The notes under the pieces: generated by a model
Told to the model about the DNA's origin: nothing
What the model saw: only the letters and a program-made list of their open reading frames with translations
Databases searched by the model: none
Origin: an uncultured Acidimicrobiales bacterium
Lineage (GTDB): Bacteria > Actinomycetota > Acidimicrobiia > Acidimicrobiales > Ilumatobacteraceae
Reading direction: 5' to 3'
Assembly (NCBI GenBank): GCA_963803355.1
Contig: CAWDLV010000002.1
Span: 146,829 to 210,828 of the forward strand
DNA length: 64,000 nt
Shown here: one piece after another, positions 2,926 through 48,863 of the stretch
How the letters are laid out: every line of letters starts with the position of its first letter
Position numbering within the stretch: the first letter of the stretch is position 1
Made by a program: the position numbers and the translations under genes

Positions 2926-3126
2926 GACGGCCGGCCACTGTATAGGTCCCGGCGATGGGGTCGGCGGCCGAGGCCCGCCGGCCCCACGCCGGCCGGGCGA
3001 AACATTCCGGGCACCGAAGCTGAGGGCCGAGGACGCATTCGGTGACCAGAACGACAGCGGCCGGCGAGTCAGTGGGACCTGGGAGTGTGCCCCCCGCAGC
3101 CACGATGAACTCGGCTGCCCAGTTGG

Positions 3127-4428
3127 CTACTGGCCGGGCAGGACGGTCAGCAGGTGAGGCCGAGCGGTGCCGACCAGGTACAGCGAGCCGGTGACCAAGA
3201 TGAGGTCATCCGCGTCCGCCTGGTCGAGCGCAGCGTCGCAGGCGTCGACGACTGAGTCGGTGTACGAGACGTGGTCGCACCCGAGCGCCTTGGCCGCGGC
3301 CGCCGTCTCGGCAGCCGGCACGGCGCGGGGCGAGTCCGGGGCGCAGCAGATCACGACGTCCCACTGGTCGGCCCGCAGTGCCTCGAGCATCGCCCGAGGA
3401 TCACGACCAGAGAGGAATCCGGCGACGAGTATCTTGCGGCCGGCCGGATCGAAGTCCTCGAAGACCACGGACGCGCAGCTGTCCGCACCCGGCGGGTTGT
3501 GGGCGCCGTCGACGATCACGAGCGGCCGGTGGCCGAGCACCTCGAACCGCCCCGGTACCCGCACGTCGGCGAGGGCCTCGTCGACCACGTCCTGGGCCAG
3601 CGGGGTGTCGAAGAAGGCTTCCACCGCCGTGAGCGCGACCGCCGCGTTGTCGCCCTGGTAGCGGCCGTGGAGCGGCAGGTAGAGCTGGTGGTAGATCGAC
3701 GTCGGTGTGCGCAGAGCCAGCGATCGCCCGCCGAGCGCCAGCGTGTTCTCCTCGCACTCGAAGTCGACGTTTCGGGCGTAGATCCGCTCCGCCTCGGTGG
3801 CACGGAAGATGGCCGCCAGCTCGGGGTCGGTCTCACCGAGCACGAGCGTGCTACCGGGCTTGACGATCCCGGCCTTCTCCCTGGCCACGTCGGCCAAGGT
3901 GGGGCCGGCGTACTCGAGGTGGTCGAGGCCGACGTTCGTCACCACCGCCACCTGGCCGTCGACGACGTTCGTGGCGTCCCACCGACCAAGCAGCCCGACC
4001 TCGATGACCATGGCGTCCACCGCGATGTCCGCGAACCAGCGGAAGACGGCCGCGGTGCAGATCTCGAAGTAGCTCGGGCTCACGCCGGCCAGGATCTCGA
4101 GGTCGGCGATGGCACCGATCTGATCCGCCAGCTCCTCGTCGCTGATCGGCTCGCCGTTGCGGGACATCCGCTCGTTGACCCGCTCGAGATGGGGGCTGGT
4201 GTAGGTGCCAACGGTGAGGCCCTGGGCCATCAGCAGGCGGGTGATCATCTGGGCCGTGGAGCCCTTGCCGTTGGTGCCGGTGATGTGGATGGCCGGCGCC
4301 GCCCGCTGGGGGTCGCCCATCACCGACATCAACCGCTCGATGCGCTCCGTGGACGGCGAGTTGATGCGGCCCGTGACGTCGTAGTTGGTGTGCTCAGCCA
4401 GGTGGGCGAGCGCGGCGTCATAGTCCAT
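3127..4428 (-). CDS. folC: Bifunctional folylpolyglutamate synthase / dihydrofolate synthase.
   Basis: The 433-aa protein has a Mur-ligase-like P-loop ([10 protein letters not shown]) and FolC-family conservation. It sits upstream of ndk, as in many actinobacteria. Confidence 0.85.
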
Positions 4429-8949: not shown

Positions 8950-8971
8950 CCGGTCCGCGCGCCCGGCCGAT

Positions 8972-9025
8972 CCGTTCTGTTCCGCGAATTCGAACGCCCG
9001 CCGTCAGATCTGCGGAACGGAACGG
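8972..9025. repeat. 54-bp palindromic hairpin element, copy 1. A 14-bp inverted repeat (CCGTTCTGTTCCGC / GCGGAAC(g)GAACGG) flanks a 26-nt loop.
   Basis: Read directly from the sequence. A second copy with identical architecture lies at 33697..33750. Both copies are followed by G-rich tandem tracts. Confidence 0.5.
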
Positions 9026-9105
9026 GAGAGGGCGGGTGGCCCGGGCGGGTGGCATGGCGGCTGGCCCGGGCGGCGGGCACGGCGGGTGGCTCGGGGCGGG
9101 GGGCT
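9026..9105. repeat. G-rich direct-repeat tract following hairpin copy 1: (GGCGGGTGGC)x3 and GGCCCGGGCGG x2, ending GGGGCGGGGGGC.
   Basis: Direct repeats are visible in the sequence. The parallel tract after copy 2 (33757..33830) ends in the similar motif GGCGGGGGGGCATGGAAC. Confidence 0.4.
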
Positions 9106-9155
9106 TGGACCCGTCGCCCGGCCGGGCTCGGCGTCGCTCTGGAAGAATCGACCCG

Positions 9156-11793
9156 ATGCCACAGATCGTCGACGTCGTCCCCCACACCCACTGGGACCGC
9201 GAGTGGTACCTGCCGTTCCAGCGCTTCCGGCTGAAGCTGGTGGCCACGCTCGACGACCTCCTGTCCGACCTCGAGGCCAATCCGGACTTCACCCACTTCC
9301 TGCTCGACGGGCAGCTGGCGGCCGTCGACGACTACCTCGAGATCCGCCCCGACCGCGAGGACCTGGTGGTGCGTCTCAACCGTGAGGGCCGAGTTGCCAT
9401 GGGCCCTTGGTACACCCTCCCCGACGAGTTCCTCGTGTCGGGCGAGACGCTCGTGCGCAACCTGCAGATGGGGATGGACCGGGCGGACGAGCTCGGCGGC
9501 GCGATGACGGTCGGCTACCTGCCCGACATGTTCGGCCACATCGCGCAGATGCCACAGCTGCTGGCCCAGTTCGGCTTCGAGCACGCAGTCGTGTGGCGTG
9601 GCGTGCCGCCGGCCGTCACTCGCACCGGCTTCTGGTGGGAAGCCCCCGACGGCACCCGCGTCCGGGCCGAATACCTCCCTACCGGCTACGGCGTCGGTTC
9701 GAGGATGCCCGATGACGCGCTGGCCTTCCTCGAGCGGGTGTCGGGCTGGATCGAGGCCTACCGCGGCTTCGTCGGCCACGACCCGGTGCTCTGGATGAAC
9801 GGCAGCGACCACCTGCCCCACCAGGCCTTCGTGCCTCAGATCGTCGCCGATGCCACCAAGCTCTCCGAAGGCGAGCTCGAGCTGCGCATCACGTCGCTGG
9901 CGGAGCACCTGCGCCATGCCCCGACCGATGGGCTGGCCGTCTGGCGCGGCGAGCTCCGCAGCAGTGCTCGAACGAACCTCCTCTTCGGCGTGGGCTCCAA
10001 CCGGGTCGACGTGCGCCAGGCGGTGGCCCGCGCCGAGCGGGTGCTCGAGCAGGTGGCCGAGCCCCTGTGGGCCGCGTTCGTGCCGGCCTCGCTGTGGCCG
10101 GAGCGACTGCTCCAGCTGGCCTGGCGCCAGGTGGTGCTCAATGCCGCCCACGACTCCGTGTGCGCGTGCTCGCACGATGAGGTGGTCGCCGCCGTCGTCA
10201 ACCGTTACGCCGAGGCCCGCCAGATCGGCGACGGTCTGGCAGAGCAGGGCACACACCTCATCGGTGCCGCCCTCGCCGGCCGAGACCCGGTGGCGGTGAA
10301 CACGCTCGCCCGCCGACGGGGCGGCTTGGTCGAGCTCACGCGGCTCGGCGACGAACCGCTCCCCCACGAGCAGCTCCTCCATGCCACGGCCGCGCACCGG
10401 GTGCTGCACGAGCTGCGGGCCGCAGACGCGCCGATCCGACTCGAGGCCGAGCTCGACGTGCGGCCCGACGTCCACGGCGTGGGGTTCAGCGACCGCCTCG
10501 ACGGCCGACTCGATGTCCACCTCATCGTCGACCGCACCAAGGGCGGGCGGTTCCCGGCCCAGGCGAGCGTCCGGCGCCTGGCCGAGCTGGCGGCCGCCGA
10601 TCCCGACCGTCTGGTCGTCCTGAGCCTGGCCGACCGAGCCCGGCGACGGGTGCTCGTCCACGTGGCCGACGTGCCGGGGCTGGGCTGGGCGTCGGTGGCG
10701 CCGAGCGCGGCGCCGCCGGTCGTGGCCGATGGCGTCCGGATGAGCAACGGGTTGCTGACGGTGGAGGTAGACCCGGCTGGAGGGACCTTCGCCCTCGACG
10801 GTCACAGTGGGCTCGGTCGCCTCGTCGACGACGGAGACGCCGGCGACACGTACAGCTACAACCCACCCGAGCCGCGACGTCGTCGTGGAAGGCCCCGAGC
10901 AGCTCGACGTGACGGTGACCGAGTCGGGGCCGTCGCGGGCGCAGATCACGATCGACGCCACCTACCGGTGGCCGCGGCGGGTCGACGACCGCACCGGTAC
11001 CCGCGTCGGCGAAGAGATCGTTCCGATATCAACGACGTTGGAGCTTCGGGCCGGCGAACGCTTCGTGCGGGTCACCACCTCGCTGGACAACCGTTGCGAG
11101 GACCACCGCCTTCGGGCCTGGTTCCCGCTTCCGCAACGGGCGCGCGGCTCACGGGCCGAGAGCGCGTTCACGGTGGTGTGTCGCGGGTTGACGGCCGACA
11201 GCGGTCCGACCGAGGTCGGGCTGCCGACGTTCCCGTCCCGCCGCTTCGTCCAGGCGGGCGGCCTCACGGTGGCCCACGAGGGGCTGCTGGAGTACGAGCT
11301 GGTGGACGTCGATCGGGCCGGCACCGCCGGCGCGCTGGCGCTCACCTTGCTGCGGGCGTCGCGCTACCTCTCGCGTGGTCCGATGAGCTTGCGCCCCCTG
11401 CCAGCCGGTCCGGTCATCGAGCTGGCCGGGTCGCAGGTGCCGGGCCGCCACACGCTGCGCTGCGCCGTCGCCCTCGGCGACGTCGACCCCTACGCCTTGG
11501 TCGAGGATGCCTTCGTGGAGCTGCGGGTGGCCCAGGGCGCCGGTCTCGGCCAGCATCCCGACCGCTACCAGGCCCTCGACGTGTCAGGGCTGCCGGTGTC
11601 GAGCGTGCGCCGGCGCGCCGGGCGGCTCGAGGTGCGAGCCTTCAACCCGAAGCCCTACCCCGGCACGCTGCGCATCGCTGGCCGGCGCGGGCACGTGGTC
11701 GACCTCCGAGGCAACAAGGTCGAGCCCTTCGACGGCGGGCTCACGGTCCGGGCCTACGGCATCGTCACCGTGGCGCTCGACGAACCGGGCTGA
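9156..11793 (+). CDS. GH38 alpha-mannosidase (mannosylglycerate hydrolase-like). There is one apparent frameshift near 10870.
   Basis: The N-terminus is MPQIVDVVPHTHWDREWYLPFQ (the GH38 HxHWDREW motif). The large ORF continues to DTYSYNPPEP, then shifts into ORF 10807..11793 (DVVVEGPEQLDVTVTESGP...). The total is about 880 aa. The RBS is GGAAGAA, 9 nt upstream of the ATG. Confidence 0.8.
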
Positions 11794-24250: not shown

Positions 24251-24424
24251 TCGTGCACCGTCCAGTCCTGAGAGCCCGTGCGGCCTGGCACCGACTCCGT
24301 GTCGCGGGGACGCTAGCGCCGCCGCTGGCGGCGACCCGAGCCGCCCCGGCGCGGGCGCAACCCGAACGGCAGGATCATGAAGCGCGAGCTCAAGGACGAG
24401 CTCCTCGCCTGACGAGCCATGAGA

Positions 24425-24455
24425 GGGTCGGGCCACGCGAGCCGTGGCCCGACCC
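24425..24455. terminator. Strong GC hairpin, 13-bp perfect stem (GGGTCGGGCCACG-cgagc-CGTGGCCCGACCC), just downstream of the LIV solute-binding protein gene.
   Basis: The perfect inverted repeat lies 19 nt past the stop of the minus-strand gene. There is no T-tract, as is usual for actinobacteria. Confidence 0.55.
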
Positions 24456-24473
24456 TGCCCTGGCGGGTGCTCA

Positions 24474-33537: not shown

Positions 33538-33696
33538 CTCCTTGCTCGGGTCTTCCTGCTCAGGTGCCCAGGCCCAGGCTAGTTCCCGCTCGGAAGGGCG
33601 CTCCGTTGCGGGTCGGCCTCACCGCCGGTCGGCCACACCGCCCCCGGCAGGCAGGTCTCACCGGCGCTCGGTGGGTCTCACCGCCGCGCCGCCAAT

Positions 33697-33750
33697 CCGT
33701 TCTGTTCCGCAGATCTGACCCTGGGCGATCGCCGGCGCGGAACAGAACGG
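33697..33750. repeat. 54-bp palindromic hairpin element, copy 2 (CCGTTCTGTTCCGC-26 nt-GCGGAACAGAACGG, perfect 14-bp inverted repeat).
   Basis: It has the same 14-bp arms and the same 54-bp length as copy 1 at 8972..9025. Its 26-nt loop begins AGATCTGAC, which is the reverse complement of the 3' end of the copy-1 loop (GTCAGATCT). Confidence 0.5.
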
Positions 33751-33756
33751 GGAGGG

Positions 33757-33830
33757 TCCGGGCGCGACGGGCGCGACGGGCGCGACGGACGCGACGGGCG
33801 CGACGGGCGCGGTGGGCGCGACTGGCGGGG
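33757..33830. repeat. Tandem 9-mer repeat (GGGCGCGAC x about 7, with variants) following hairpin copy 2, ending GGCGGGGGGGC.
   Basis: It reads gggcgcgacgggcgcgacgggcgcgacggacgcgacgggcgcgacgggcgcggtgggcgcgactggcggggggg. It lies upstream of the rarD start. Confidence 0.5.
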
Positions 33831-33883
33831 GGGCATGGAACTGGCTTCGCCCGCAGCCACGACGGCCCGTAGCGTCAGGCGTC

Positions 33884-34795
33884 GTGGACGAGCGACGGGC
33901 GGGTGTGGCACTCGGCCTCGGCGCCTACGTGCTCTGGGGCTTCCTCACCGTCTACTGGAAGCAGCTCGAGGGGCTGAACCCGTTCGAGCTGATCGGGGCG
34001 CGGATCGTCAGCTCGTTCGTGCTGTTGGCCGTCGTCCTCGGCATCACCCACCGCTGGCGGGGGGTCGTCGCGATTCGAGCCGACCGTGCGCTCCTCGCCC
34101 GGGTCGCCCTCGCGGCCGTTCTCCTCACGGCGAACTGGACGACGTACGTGTGGGCCGTCGTGCACGACAACGTCATGGAGACGGCCCTCGGTTACTTCAT
34201 CGCCCCCCTCGGCACCGTCCTGATCGGAGTCTTCGTGCTGGGCGAACGGCTCCGGCCGGCCCAGCGCCTCGCCCTCGGGCTGGCCGCCCTCGCCGTCGTC
34301 GAGCTCACCGTCGCCTACGGCCACGTGCCCGTGCTCGCCCTGATCATCGCCGTCTCGTGGTCGCTCTACGGCCTCCTGAAGCGCCAGGTCCCGCTTCAAC
34401 CGTTGGAGAGCTTGGCCGGCGAGACGGCCGTGCTGCTGTTACCGGCCGTGCTGGTGGTGGTCATCCCGATCGCTGCCGGCGGGGGCGTTACCCAGGAGGC
34501 GTCCGGGTTCCAGCTCGGTCTTCTGGTCCTGTCCGGGCTGGCCACCACCATTCCGCTCCTCATGTTCGCGTGGGCGGCGAAGCGGGTCCCGTTCACGACG
34601 CTCGGGCCGATGCAATACGCCGTCCCGACCATCAACTTCGCGCTCGGCACCTTCGTGTACCACGAGGACCTCGACGGAGCGCGGTTGCTCGGCTTCGCTC
34701 TGGTGTGGATCGCGCTCGCCATCTTCACTGCCGACGGTCTGCGGGCCTCCCGCCGGGTCACGCCGCCGATGGAGGTCGCTACCGTCGTGCCGTGA
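33884..34795 (+). CDS. rarD: EamA/RarD family transporter.
   Basis: The GTG start gives VDERRAGVALGLGAYVLWGFLTVYWKQL, a RarD-type N-terminus. There are 10 TM helices and two EamA repeats. Confidence 0.75.
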   Translation: MDERRAGVALGLGAYVLWGFLTVYWKQLEGLNPFELIGARIVSSFVLLAVVLGITHRWRGVVAIRADRALLARVALAAVLLTANWTTYVWAVVHDNVMETALGYFIAPLGTVLIGVFVLGERLRPAQRLALGLAALAVVELTVAYGHVPVLALIIAVSWSLYGLLKRQVPLQPLESLAGETAVLLLPAVLVVVIPIAAGGGVTQEASGFQLGLLVLSGLATTIPLLMFAWAAKRVPFTTLGPMQYAVPTINFALGTFVYHEDLDGARLLGFALVWIALAIFTADGLRASRRVTPPMEVATVVP

Positions 34796-46398: not shown

Positions 46399-46500
46399 CA
46401 CCCAGCCCTCGGCTCTCCCCTGCCGGCGGCGCGGCGAACCATCGCAACGGAGCCGCCCGGGGTCAACCGTAGTGCTCGACCTCCGCCAGACGGGACCAGC

Positions 46501-46670
46501 GAATCTCCGGCGGATCTCCGGCGGATCCCCGGCGAATCGCCACCATGAATCTTCGGCGAATCGCCGCCACCCCTCGTCGGCGAAGTCGGGACGGCGAACC
46601 CTCAGCAAATCGCCGCCACCCCTGGTCGGCGAAGTCGGCGCGGCGAACCCTCGGCAGATCGCCGGCGGGC
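46501..46670. repeat. Complex tandem-repeat region. It has three 11-bp units (G/A)ATC(T/C)CCGGCG, then about 2.3 copies of a 49-bp unit (AATCGCCGCCACCCCTCGTCGGCGAAGTCGGGACGGCGAACCCTCAGCA).
   Basis: The direct repeats are read from the sequence: units at 46559..46607 and 46608..46656, with partial units on each side. The region lies upstream of the GT2-MTase-GT2 operon start. Confidence 0.6.
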
Positions 46671-47582: not shown

Positions 47583-47620
47583 CGCCCGCCCACCCGGTTC
47601 CCGCACGCCTATTTCGTTCT

Positions 47621-47659
47621 GGTCACCGAATCTGCGCCAGAGGCGCCAGATCGGTGACC
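47621..47659. terminator. Long imperfect hairpin (GGTCACCGAATCTGCGCC-aga-GGCGCCAGATCGGTGACC) downstream of the HhH-GPD gene.
   Basis: About 17 paired bases with single-nt bulges. It lies 39 nt after the stop codon. Confidence 0.45.
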
Positions 47660-47685
47660 CGAAGCCGCTGACCCGGCCGGTAAAG

Positions 47686-48651
47686 GTGGCTCCGTCGCGG
47701 CGCGACGTCGTCGTACCCCGTTCCGATCGGCCTCGGCCCGGGCACACGCTCCTGCGGTGTGACTCCGAACGACACCTGCTCGAGCTCGCGTCGCGACAGC
47801 TCGGCTGCGCCACCGACCGTCAGGCGCTCAGCGCCGGAATGACCATGGCGCAGATCCGTCAACAGCTCGATCGGCGCCGGTTCGAGCGCCTCGGGGTCCG
47901 GGCCCTCCGCGTCGCCGGTTCGCCGGCGACCTGGGAGCAGCGGCTGATGGCCGGCCTCCTCGATCTCGGACCTCAAGCCGTCGTCTCCCACCGGGCCGCC
48001 GCCGCCCTGCTCGGCCTCGACGGCTTCGAGCCGGGACCGGTCGAGTTCACGGTGCCCCGCTCGGAGCGCCACCGAGTTCGCGGCTGGACCGTGCACAGCA
48101 CGCGTCGGCTCGACCGGATCGATCGCCTCGAAGTGGGTCTCCTGGCCTGCACGACGGCCTCGCGGACCATCGTCGATCTGTCGGCGTCGGTCCGCGCCGA
48201 CCAGCTGGCGCTCGCCATCGACAGCGCAGTGCGGGAGGGGCTCACCTCACCGGCGTTCCTCGGGCGGCGGCTGGTCAGCCTGCGAGGGCGAGGCCGCCAG
48301 GGCGTTCGACTCCTGCAAGCGGTGCTGGAAGACGCCGGCGGTCATACCCCCCTTGAGCGGGCATTCCTGCGGCTGGTCAAAGCCGGCGGCCTCCCGAGGC
48401 CGACCTGTCAACAGATCTTCCGACGGGATGGCAAGACGATCGCGCGGGTGGACTTCTCCTTCGAACCGCGTCCTCTGGTCGTCGAGGTATCCGGCCGGAG
48501 GGGGCACAGCACGGATGTGGAGCGGGCTCGGGACGCCCACCGTCGCAACGAGCTGCAATCCCTCGGCTTCGTCGTCCTCGAATTCACCCGCGCCGACGTG
48601 TTCGAGCGGCCGGCCTACGTCCTCCAGATGCTCCGCCGCCACCTCCCCTAA
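47686..48651 (+). CDS. DUF559 endonuclease-domain protein with an AbiEi-like N-terminal domain.
   Basis: The N-terminus (HLLELASRQLGCATDRQALSAGMTMAQIRQQLDRRRFERLGVRALRV) is followed by the C-terminal DUF559 region (GKTIARVDFSFEPRPLVVEVSGRRGHSTDVERARDAHRRNELQSLGFVVLEFTRADV). Confidence 0.6.
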   Translation: MAPSRRDVVVPRSDRPRPGHTLLRCDSERHLLELASRQLGCATDRQALSAGMTMAQIRQQLDRRRFERLGVRALRVAGSPATWEQRLMAGLLDLGPQAVVSHRAAAALLGLDGFEPGPVEFTVPRSERHRVRGWTVHSTRRLDRIDRLEVGLLACTTASRTIVDLSASVRADQLALAIDSAVREGLTSPAFLGRRLVSLRGRGRQGVRLLQAVLEDAGGHTPLERAFLRLVKAGGLPRPTCQQIFRRDGKTIARVDFSFEPRPLVVEVSGRRGHSTDVERARDAHRRNELQSLGFVVLEFTRADVFERPAYVLQMLRRHLP

Positions 48652-48720
48652 GCGTTCCGGTCACCCTTTCCGCGCCCCCGGCTCATGTTCGGTGCCCAGA
48701 ACGGGAGGGCAGGCCGGGAG

Positions 48721-48850
48721 GCGGGGCCCGGCGCCGGCGCGATGGGCCGGGAGGCGGGGCCCGGCGCCGGCGCGATGGGCCGGGAGGCAGGGCCCGGCGC
48801 CGGCGCGATGGGCCGGGAGGCGGGGCCCGGCGCCGGCGATGGGCCGGTGG
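48721..48850. repeat. VNTR-like 33-bp tandem repeat (GGCCGGGAGGCGGGGCCCGGCGCCGGCGCGATG), 3 full copies plus a fourth truncated 31-bp copy.
   Basis: Copies are at 48721-48753, 48754-48786, 48787-48819 (one G>A variant) and 48820-48850 (2-nt deletion). The repeat is intergenic, between the convergent DUF559 and rnhA genes. Confidence 0.75.
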
Positions 48851-48863
48851 GGCGGCCGGACCG

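Follow-up and report, generated by a model that had tools for sequence, protein, structure and literature searches.

The stretch of DNA examined here, 64,000 nucleotides of contig CAWDLV010000002.1 from an uncultured Acidimicrobiales bacterium of the Ilumatobacteraceae (hereafter the window), raises the question of what a 54-bp palindrome with a G-rich tail is and how it came to stand at separate intergenic sites. Two such copies, W1 (8972..9025) and W2 (33697..33750), neither of which is assigned to a strand, were found to belong to a family of palindromes that also brackets a gene of the window (47686..48651, + strand). By Pfam, PADLOC and AlphaFold, this gene encodes an AbiEi-like protein, with a winged helix-turn-helix (wHTH) and an AbiEi C-terminal domain, fused to a DUF559 Vsr-like nuclease. 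We lean, if not strongly, towards the interpretation that W1 and W2 are orphan AbiEi-type putative binding palindromes that were derived from, or spread by, this AbiEi-DUF559 module, in a manner similar to repetitive extragenic palindromic (REP) sequences and their REP-associated tyrosine transposases (RAYTs).

The two palindromes and their family in the window

W1 lies 23 nt past the stop codon of a CDGSH gene and upstream of a GH38 gene (ATG at 9156), and W2 is situated between a CBS gene on the − strand and a divergent rarD/EamA gene, encoding an EamA/RarD-type transporter, on the + strand. A first-pass annotation, made from the letters of the sequence, had placed both copies upstream of plus-strand genes, correctly so, and had described them as 54-bp units with like arms, a 26-nt loop and one mismatch in W1. 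The arm coordinates agree with this description. The arms of W1 (8972-8985 and 9012-9025) read CCGTTCTGTTCCGC and GCGGAACGGAACGG, with a single T.G mismatch in an arrangement of 14-N26-14; those of W2 (33697-33710 and 33737-33750) read CCGTTCTGTTCCGC and GCGGAACAGAACGG, pair perfectly and likewise enclose a centre of 26 nt. Within the window the arm occurs four times at no more than one mismatch. A search allowing two mismatches gave five matches (the fifth, with two mismatches, at 4115) against 0.66 expected, a number that none of 100 shuffles reached. Perfect 14-bp stems number just two in the 64-kb window, and the longest stem in shuffled sequence was 13 bp. The other perfect 14-bp hairpin, at 24424-24456 (AGGGTCGGGCCACG-cgagc-CGTGGCCCGACCCT), has a short loop and a terminator-like look.

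An independent Logan assembly (L024) reproduces locus 1 with two single-nucleotide polymorphisms, and a contig of about 92% DNA identity (L023) reproduces locus 2, the loop being oriented as in the window in both. An assembly artefact, which the first-pass annotation had named as a way in which its proposal could fail, is therefore excluded. The inversion of the centre between fixed flanks that it had noticed is real as well. The motif GTTCCGCAGATCTGAC lies on the − strand of W1 (9003-9018) and on the + strand of W2 (33704-33719), and the whole units have 45 of 54 positions in common when one is inverted versus 38 of 54 when they are compared directly. The orientation of the flanks is unchanged, with GCCRAT on the left and GGGRGAGGG plus a G-rich array on the right. 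In W1 and W2, one arm and the adjoining AGATCTGAC add up to a half-site that is exactly 23 bp long and agrees between the copies at 22 of 23 positions. The arms are adjoined by hexamers that are self-complementary over 6 bp, GAATTC...AGATCT in the W1 loop (8986-9011) and AGATCT...GCCGGC in the W2 loop (33711-33736), and the W2 centre additionally holds GGCGATCGCC.

Further copies were sought in the window with the outer stem CGTTCYG...CRGAACG and by examining hairpins beside G-quadruplex (G4) motifs. The element is indeed repeated, and it is not confined to the two loci first described: the window holds five palindromes of 52-54 bp with this outer stem in common, and relatives carry related palindromes that flank genes. 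None of the three additional members is assigned a strand. W4 (47614..47665), a 52-bp palindrome of the form TCGTTCTGGTCACCGA...TCGGTGACCCGAAGC, lies 20 nt upstream of the AbiEi-DUF559 open reading frame (ORF) as a putative operator and is orthologous to the upstream palindrome of a syntenic relative (L034). W3 (48652..48704), an imperfect palindrome of 53 bp, begins directly after the stop codon of the same ORF. W5 (3003..3054) occupies the space between folC and ndk, is 52 bp long and lacks a G-rich tail; one arm of W4 recurs unchanged as its right arm, TCGGTGACCAGAACGA.

Two covariance models were used to examine family membership. Within the window, model R1, built from all known members, recovered exactly these five, which scored 35-50 bits; the match after them reached 16 bits. 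Model R2 was built from only ten gene-flanking palindromes, leaving out W1, W2, W5 and a further locus, L003. Its best matches outside the training set were W5 at 39.2 bits (E~4e-7), W1 at 28.9 bits (E~1e-4) and W2 at 21.7 bits (E~0.005), against a background of at most 16.5 bits. The top background match of the models, at ~16 bits, was the 24424-24456 hairpin mentioned above. A length of 51-54 bp is kept in 15 of 15 family members and the centre varies. The copies stand in diverse intergenic settings, between tandem, divergent or convergent genes. No AbiEi-like ORF is adjacent to W1, W2 or W5, and these three are henceforth called orphans.

The bracketed AbiEi-DUF559 gene

The ORF at 47686-48651 is bracketed by W4 and W3. 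Its C-terminus matches Pfam DUF559 (27.6 bits against a cut-off of 20.6) and also MTES_1575, and PADLOC assigns its residues 27-194 to AbiEi (E=1e-30). Its AlphaFold model has a predicted local distance difference test (pLDDT) score of 89.7. In Foldseek searches, about 200 residues of this model correspond to the two-domain AbiEi antitoxin 6Y8Q, and the last ~100 residues superpose on the catalytic domain of I-Bth0305I (3R3P, template modelling (TM) score 0.76) and on the DUF559 protein 3HRL. Residues D256, E267, H274 and D283 are invariant across 39 homologues. With this modelled fold and these conserved acidic and His residues, the protein is predicted to be a nuclease of the Vsr-like/DUF559 PD-(D/E)xK type. 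Actinobacterial genomes and metagenomes commonly hold homologues (639 matches at E<=1e-5), and no relatives were found in the viral contigs or PLSDB plasmids searched. By sequence, the protein had no match in PDB, nor did it match NCBIfam. There is no second gene, and hence no AbiEii (DUF1814) toxin partner, between the palindromes, and the locus thus does not qualify as an AbiE type IV toxin-antitoxin system. The existing annotation (P0241) begins the protein at Met54 of the ORF, which gives it 268 aa. This start is probably too far downstream because the AbiEi homology and the confident part of the model begin at about residue 21-27 and the homologues are 297-320 aa long.

Two palindromes of 51-54 bp bracket the AbiEi-DUF559 gene at six of six loci, namely the window, L034, L035, L036, L037 and L003. 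The homologues at L034 to L037 are at 72-51% identity and have a 51-53-bp palindrome on both sides. L003, from Lysinibacter (Microbacteriaceae), was retrieved by a 596-Gb scan for the W1-type arm GTTCCGTTCCGC and not for the gene. Its two palindromes surround a 360-aa protein that has a DUF559 C-terminus by Pfam and is collinear with the AbiEi-DUF559 family (hhalign E=1.7e-4). The arms are alike within a locus and unlike between loci (CGTTCTGGTCACCGA; ...GGTCAGCGA; CGCTTGTGTCG; GCGCTCAGGTCACGA; GTTCCGTTCCGCGG). Pairing is kept across the family, with 87% of cells paired and 12 of 16 pairs changed on both sides, as is characteristic of compensatory evolution. The covariation score was 0.41, versus 0.167 ± 0.025 for shuffles and no more than 0.09 for slid controls.

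Palindromes with such a geometry have a precedent in the experimentally characterised operators of AbiEi proteins, which are inverted repeats just upstream of the AbiEi-fold gene and are bound by one monomer per repeat (PMC3985639, PMC7319586). The operator of S. agalactiae AbiEi is 11-N27-11, equivalent to 23-N3-23, over 49 bp (PMC3985639), and M. tuberculosis Rv2827c binds 23-bp repeats 13 bp apart, or 23-N13-23 (PMC7319586). W1 and W2 share this layout, a pair of inverted half-sites, each no longer than 23 bp, over a span of ~49-59 bp. Since the 51-54-bp span and the 23-bp half-site match the published operators, AbiEi-type protein-binding palindromes are the best supported identity for the family. 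The bracketed protein resembles its counterparts in AbiEi systems in having a full predicted AbiEi fold. It differs from them in the fused Vsr/DUF559 nuclease domain, the absence of an AbiEii nucleotidyltransferase toxin, the second palindrome directly after the stop codon, the orphan copies at unrelated loci and the G-rich tandem tails; binding is moreover putative here. Only W4 and the upstream palindromes of L034-L037 and L003 occupy the promoter region of an AbiEi gene, whereas W1, W2 and W5, unlike AbiEi operators, lie outside the promoter region of any AbiEi-family gene.

By analogy, we propose that the AbiEi-DUF559 protein would bind one monomer per palindrome arm, that the upstream palindrome would act as an autoregulatory operator of its gene and that the downstream palindrome would provide a second cognate site. 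The locus-by-locus covariation of the arms lends such binding indirect support. Just past the upstream palindrome, a weaker inverted pair, CGTTCCG-N39-CCGAACG, occurs together with a conserved AGGTGTGAYTCCGAACG and overlaps the start of the AbiEi-DUF559 ORF (window 47719-47771; about 9880-9935 in L034 and about 9770-9830 in L035). It is possible that, like Rv2827c, the gene has a second pair of operator repeats here.

G-rich tails and the history of the loci

The first-pass annotation had reported a G-rich tandem tract to the right of both copies and had suspected that it could form G-quadruplexes. The tracts proved to be arrays of period 25 and period 9, and at the level of sequence the suspicion was well founded, since canonical G4 motifs (at least four G3+ runs, separated by loops of 1-7 nt) are present. 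The tail of W1 (9026..9108, + strand) consists of GGGAGAGGG followed by 25/12-13-nt units (array 9031-9108, period 25 (12-13)); it is 61% G, with nine G3+ runs in 80 nt and two G4 motifs, at 9024-9049 and 9068-9103. That of W2 (33751..33835, + strand) consists of GGGGAGGG followed by 7.7 copies of CGGGCGCGA (array 33759-33827, period 9), with a G4 motif at 33749-33780 and a different repeat content in L023. To the left of W2 there are C-rich, GGTCGGCCTCACCGCC-like repeats (33611..33690, − strand), which are G-rich outward on the − strand and are partly deleted in L023. W3 is followed by GAGGG and 4.4 copies of a 33-nt unit (48705..48860, + strand; G4 motif 48703-48726), and outward of W4 a short G-rich tail carries a G4 motif on the − strand (47585-47602). 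The right flanks of W1, W2 and W3 have in common GG(G)AG(A)GGG and then a G-rich array. Of the eight G4 motifs in the window, five are no more than 12 nt away from W1-W4, in every case on the strand that reads outward, and L003 has strongly G-rich outward tails on both sides. The array units are unlike one another (12-13/25, 9 and 33 nt), and the syntenic L034 lacks the W3 array; the arrays are therefore independent local amplifications at boundaries of one kind. Judged from sequence, the G4-prone tails are a robust, lineage-specific companion of the palindromes.

One detail of the earlier description was not upheld. The end motif said to follow the repeats at both loci, GGCGGGGGGCWTGGA, is no more frequent than expected by chance, and part of it at locus 2 belongs to the ancestral flank, since its GGAAC is found in L027, which is without the element. 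A separate intergenic array of GCGAATC(G/T)CCG-like repeats, with periods of 11, 24 and 49 nt, occupies 46499-46664 of the window and has no obvious relation to the palindromes.

Comparison with relatives revealed presence and absence polymorphisms for both the gene-linked and the orphan palindromes. The neighbouring proteins have homologues annotated to metagenome-assembled genomes of Acidimicrobiales or Ilumatobacteraceae. In L036 the palindrome-gene-palindrome module stands between a DUF305 and a Zn-peptidase gene, where the gap is 1147 nt; the two genes are adjacent and palindrome-free in L034 (gap 57 nt) and in the window (52 nt). The module thus behaves as an indel. L034 and the window carry it at a shared position, between a 197/199-aa ORF and RNase H, and its inheritance is therefore mostly vertical. 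As for the orphans, L023 shares W2 with the window, and L027, L035 and L036 are without it. The CBS-rarD spacer measures 77-125 nt in element-free relatives versus about 350 nt in the window, which indicates that the window lineage gained W2 and its tails by insertion or expansion. At locus 1, synteny with L025 (76-82% identical) stops exactly at the CDGSH stop codon (window 8950-9160 vs L025 5488-5920). Past this point the window has W1 and GH38, and L025 has a different, longer hairpin and a hemerythrin gene. The L025 hairpin (GGTCGTTCCCGC-N48-...) looks related by eye; it was matched by neither model and was not counted.

Both downstream genes look leaderless. An extended -10 element, TGGAAGAAT, ends 7 nt before the GH38 ATG at 9156 (window 9140-9158), and TAGCGT ends 8 nt before the rarD GTG at 33884 (window 33870-33886). 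The arrangement of TAGCGT/TAGGGT, 8 nt and GTG is kept in element-free relatives (L027, L033), and TAGCGT is therefore predicted to be the native rarD promoter, outside the repeat. In a related species sampled five times (L029-L033, about 9400-10000), the CBS-EamA spacer varies from about 100 to about 450 nt between strains, a segment of it, GAGTCCTGGACCCCGTGTGGGCCGGG, occurs in opposite orientations in different strains, and some have a small extra ORF. This spacer appears to be a hotspot of indels and inversion unrelated to the palindrome family.

Origin of the orphan palindromes and alternative explanations

In the model towards which we lean, that of an orphan origin from the AbiEi-DUF559 module, the palindrome-gene-palindrome unit would be slowly mobile and mostly vertically inherited. 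W1, W2 and W5 may then have been left by loss of the gene through recombination between its two flanking palindromes, or alternatively have arisen by copying of a palindrome-plus-tail unit. The inverted centre could be a product of recombination or template switching between the perfect 14-bp inverted arms and would not require a function. The G-rich tandem tracts would have grown independently of one another in the window lineage, each by local amplification at the outer edge of a palindrome.

The proposed relation between orphan and gene-linked palindromes would resemble that between REP sequences and the RAYT gene. REPs, and the REP doublets forming hairpins (REPINs), are dispersed extragenic palindromes associated with a single, largely vertical gene flanked by its own palindromes (PMC3116915, PMC3337134, PMC5581495). 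The palindromes described here are similarly dispersed, flank one mostly vertical gene and have a sequence specific to that gene. In contrast, the gene is of an AbiEi/PD-(D/E)xK nuclease type by Pfam, PADLOC and fold search rather than a HUH Y1 transposase, the units are about 52 bp long and there is no GTAG/CGTC tag. The copy number is apparently low, with five in 64 kb and zero orphans in ~170 kb of relatives. The C-terminal ~100 residues also relate the protein to I-Bth0305I-type homing endonucleases and to DUF559 proteins (NGO0050, PDB 3HRL), on which they superpose. Unlike the homing endonucleases, the gene lies outside any intron or intein, its DNA-binding module is AbiEi-like, and complete palindromes bracket it instead of a split target site. 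Full-text literature searches on DUF559, AbiEi and palindromes returned no description of a palindrome-bracketed AbiEi-DUF559 arrangement.

Several observations weigh against an orphan origin from this module. Under R2, W2 reaches an E-value of only about 0.005-0.02, with a rough calibration. The inner arm halves of W1 and W2 (TTCCGC) are unlike those beside the window gene (GTCACCGA), and a cognate gene for these two palindromes is absent within the 64-kb window. The relative orientation of upstream and downstream palindromes is ambiguous at most loci, the exception being L037, where it is direct. L034, L035 and W5 are without G-rich tails, and an AbiEi-site model leaves the tails unexplained. 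No orphan palindromes were found in about 170 kb of relatives, and their dispersal is therefore rare or lineage-specific.

If the proposed relation holds, AbiEi-DUF559 fusions, annotated so far by their domains only, would gain a concrete candidate for a DNA target, and a class of intergenic hairpins in high-GC genomes that is otherwise hard to understand would be explained. The bracketing by co-evolving palindromes, the AbiEi operator geometry and the orphan copies suggest a selfish or regulatory life style. Protein-bound palindromes would also be linked to hotspots of G-rich tandem-repeat growth, which could bear on the origin of arrays that resemble variable number tandem repeats (VNTRs). 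A more far-reaching version is that this is an undescribed nuclease-based, non-HUH REP/RAYT-like system of Actinomycetota, in which nicking or cutting by the protein at its own ~52-bp palindromes would seed both orphans and G4-prone amplifications; we regard this as speculative and unlikely.

The alternative that survives best is that the palindromes are selfish, REP-like or similar to miniature inverted-repeat transposable elements (MITEs), and are moved by an enzyme encoded elsewhere, their adjacency to AbiEi-DUF559 genes reflecting an insertion preference or chance. The spread of copies over unrelated intergenic settings, the appearance of W2 and the W3 tail as insertions relative to relatives and the VNTR-like variation of the arrays are consistent with such mobility. 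It does not account for the bracketing at all six loci with arms that covary locus by locus, nor for the AbiEi operator precedent of like geometry. Furthermore, no target-site duplication, transposase or RAYT was seen, and the relatives carry no orphan copies in the ~170 kb noted above. Bacterial MITEs such as Correia/NEMIS are likewise small and intergenic, with terminal inverted repeats and either internal orientation. In contrast to them, the present elements have neither a target-site duplication nor a parent insertion sequence (IS) or transposase, their flanks (...GCCRAT / GGGRGAGGG...) are conserved, and they co-occur with a non-transposase gene. Among the identities suggested in the first-pass annotation, the REP/MITE-like palindrome comes closest, in its REP-like form, and the annotation's statement that the element is neither a simple intrinsic terminator nor a known IS or MITE was accurate. 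We consider the selfish alternative improbable.

Less probable still is a function of the hairpin in RNA, where it might terminate transcription without a U-tract, stabilise 3' ends or act on the flanking genes by attenuation. Folding energies of -32 to -33 kcal/mol (z about -2.9) make for stable stems, W1 and W3 begin 0-23 nt past stop codons and the sole mismatch of W1 is a G.U on the + strand, all of which would suit an RNA hairpin. Across the palindromes, however, mismatches show no strand bias (8 G.U versus 8 A.C), and symmetry is therefore kept at the DNA level and not in an RNA of one strand. W2 lies between divergent promoters and W4 upstream of its own gene, and the constant length of 51-54 bp around a variable centre suits a protein target with two half-sites. 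Rfam 15 at gathering score gave zero matches over the whole window, and consensus scans for sigma-70 promoters and terminators found nothing at the W1 or W2 locus. A structured RNA motif, one of the identities first suggested, found no support in these results. An intrinsic terminator was rejected in view of the missing T-run, the 26-nt loop, the G-rich downstream sequence and the divergent genes around W2.

The earlier suggestion of a small invertible segment, that is, a phase-variable switch flipping between the 14-bp inverted arms and controlling the neighbouring genes, we consider very unlikely. It was prompted by the inverted centre between flanks of fixed orientation, but that comparison is between paralogous loci and not alleles, and each locus is oriented alike in an independent assembly or strain (L024, L023). 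No recombinase family is annotated in the syntenic L023 or L025, and the 26-bp centre contains no promoter-like signal; inversion at low frequency retains a small probability. Chance similarity or an assembly artefact, for which only the generally GC-rich, repeat-prone sequence would speak, has a negligible probability and is refuted by the arm and stem statistics, the independent assemblies and the model scores.

The arm scans that led to L003 gave 18 matches among genome contigs, in many phyla, and 4 among metagenome contigs; the source genome itself was not among them. The matches other than L003 have no DUF559 or AbiEi genes beside them; they are palindromes of the (GGAAC)n type and were treated as unrelated hairpins. 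These palindromes (L001, L004-L022) occur in Acidobacteria, Legionellaceae, Desulfofundulus-like Firmicutes and low-GC metagenome contigs and are often framed by T-runs and A-runs. Some are clearly related to one another (L011/L015, L016/L018 and L007/L012/L022), and L020 carries two copies 1.6 kb apart.
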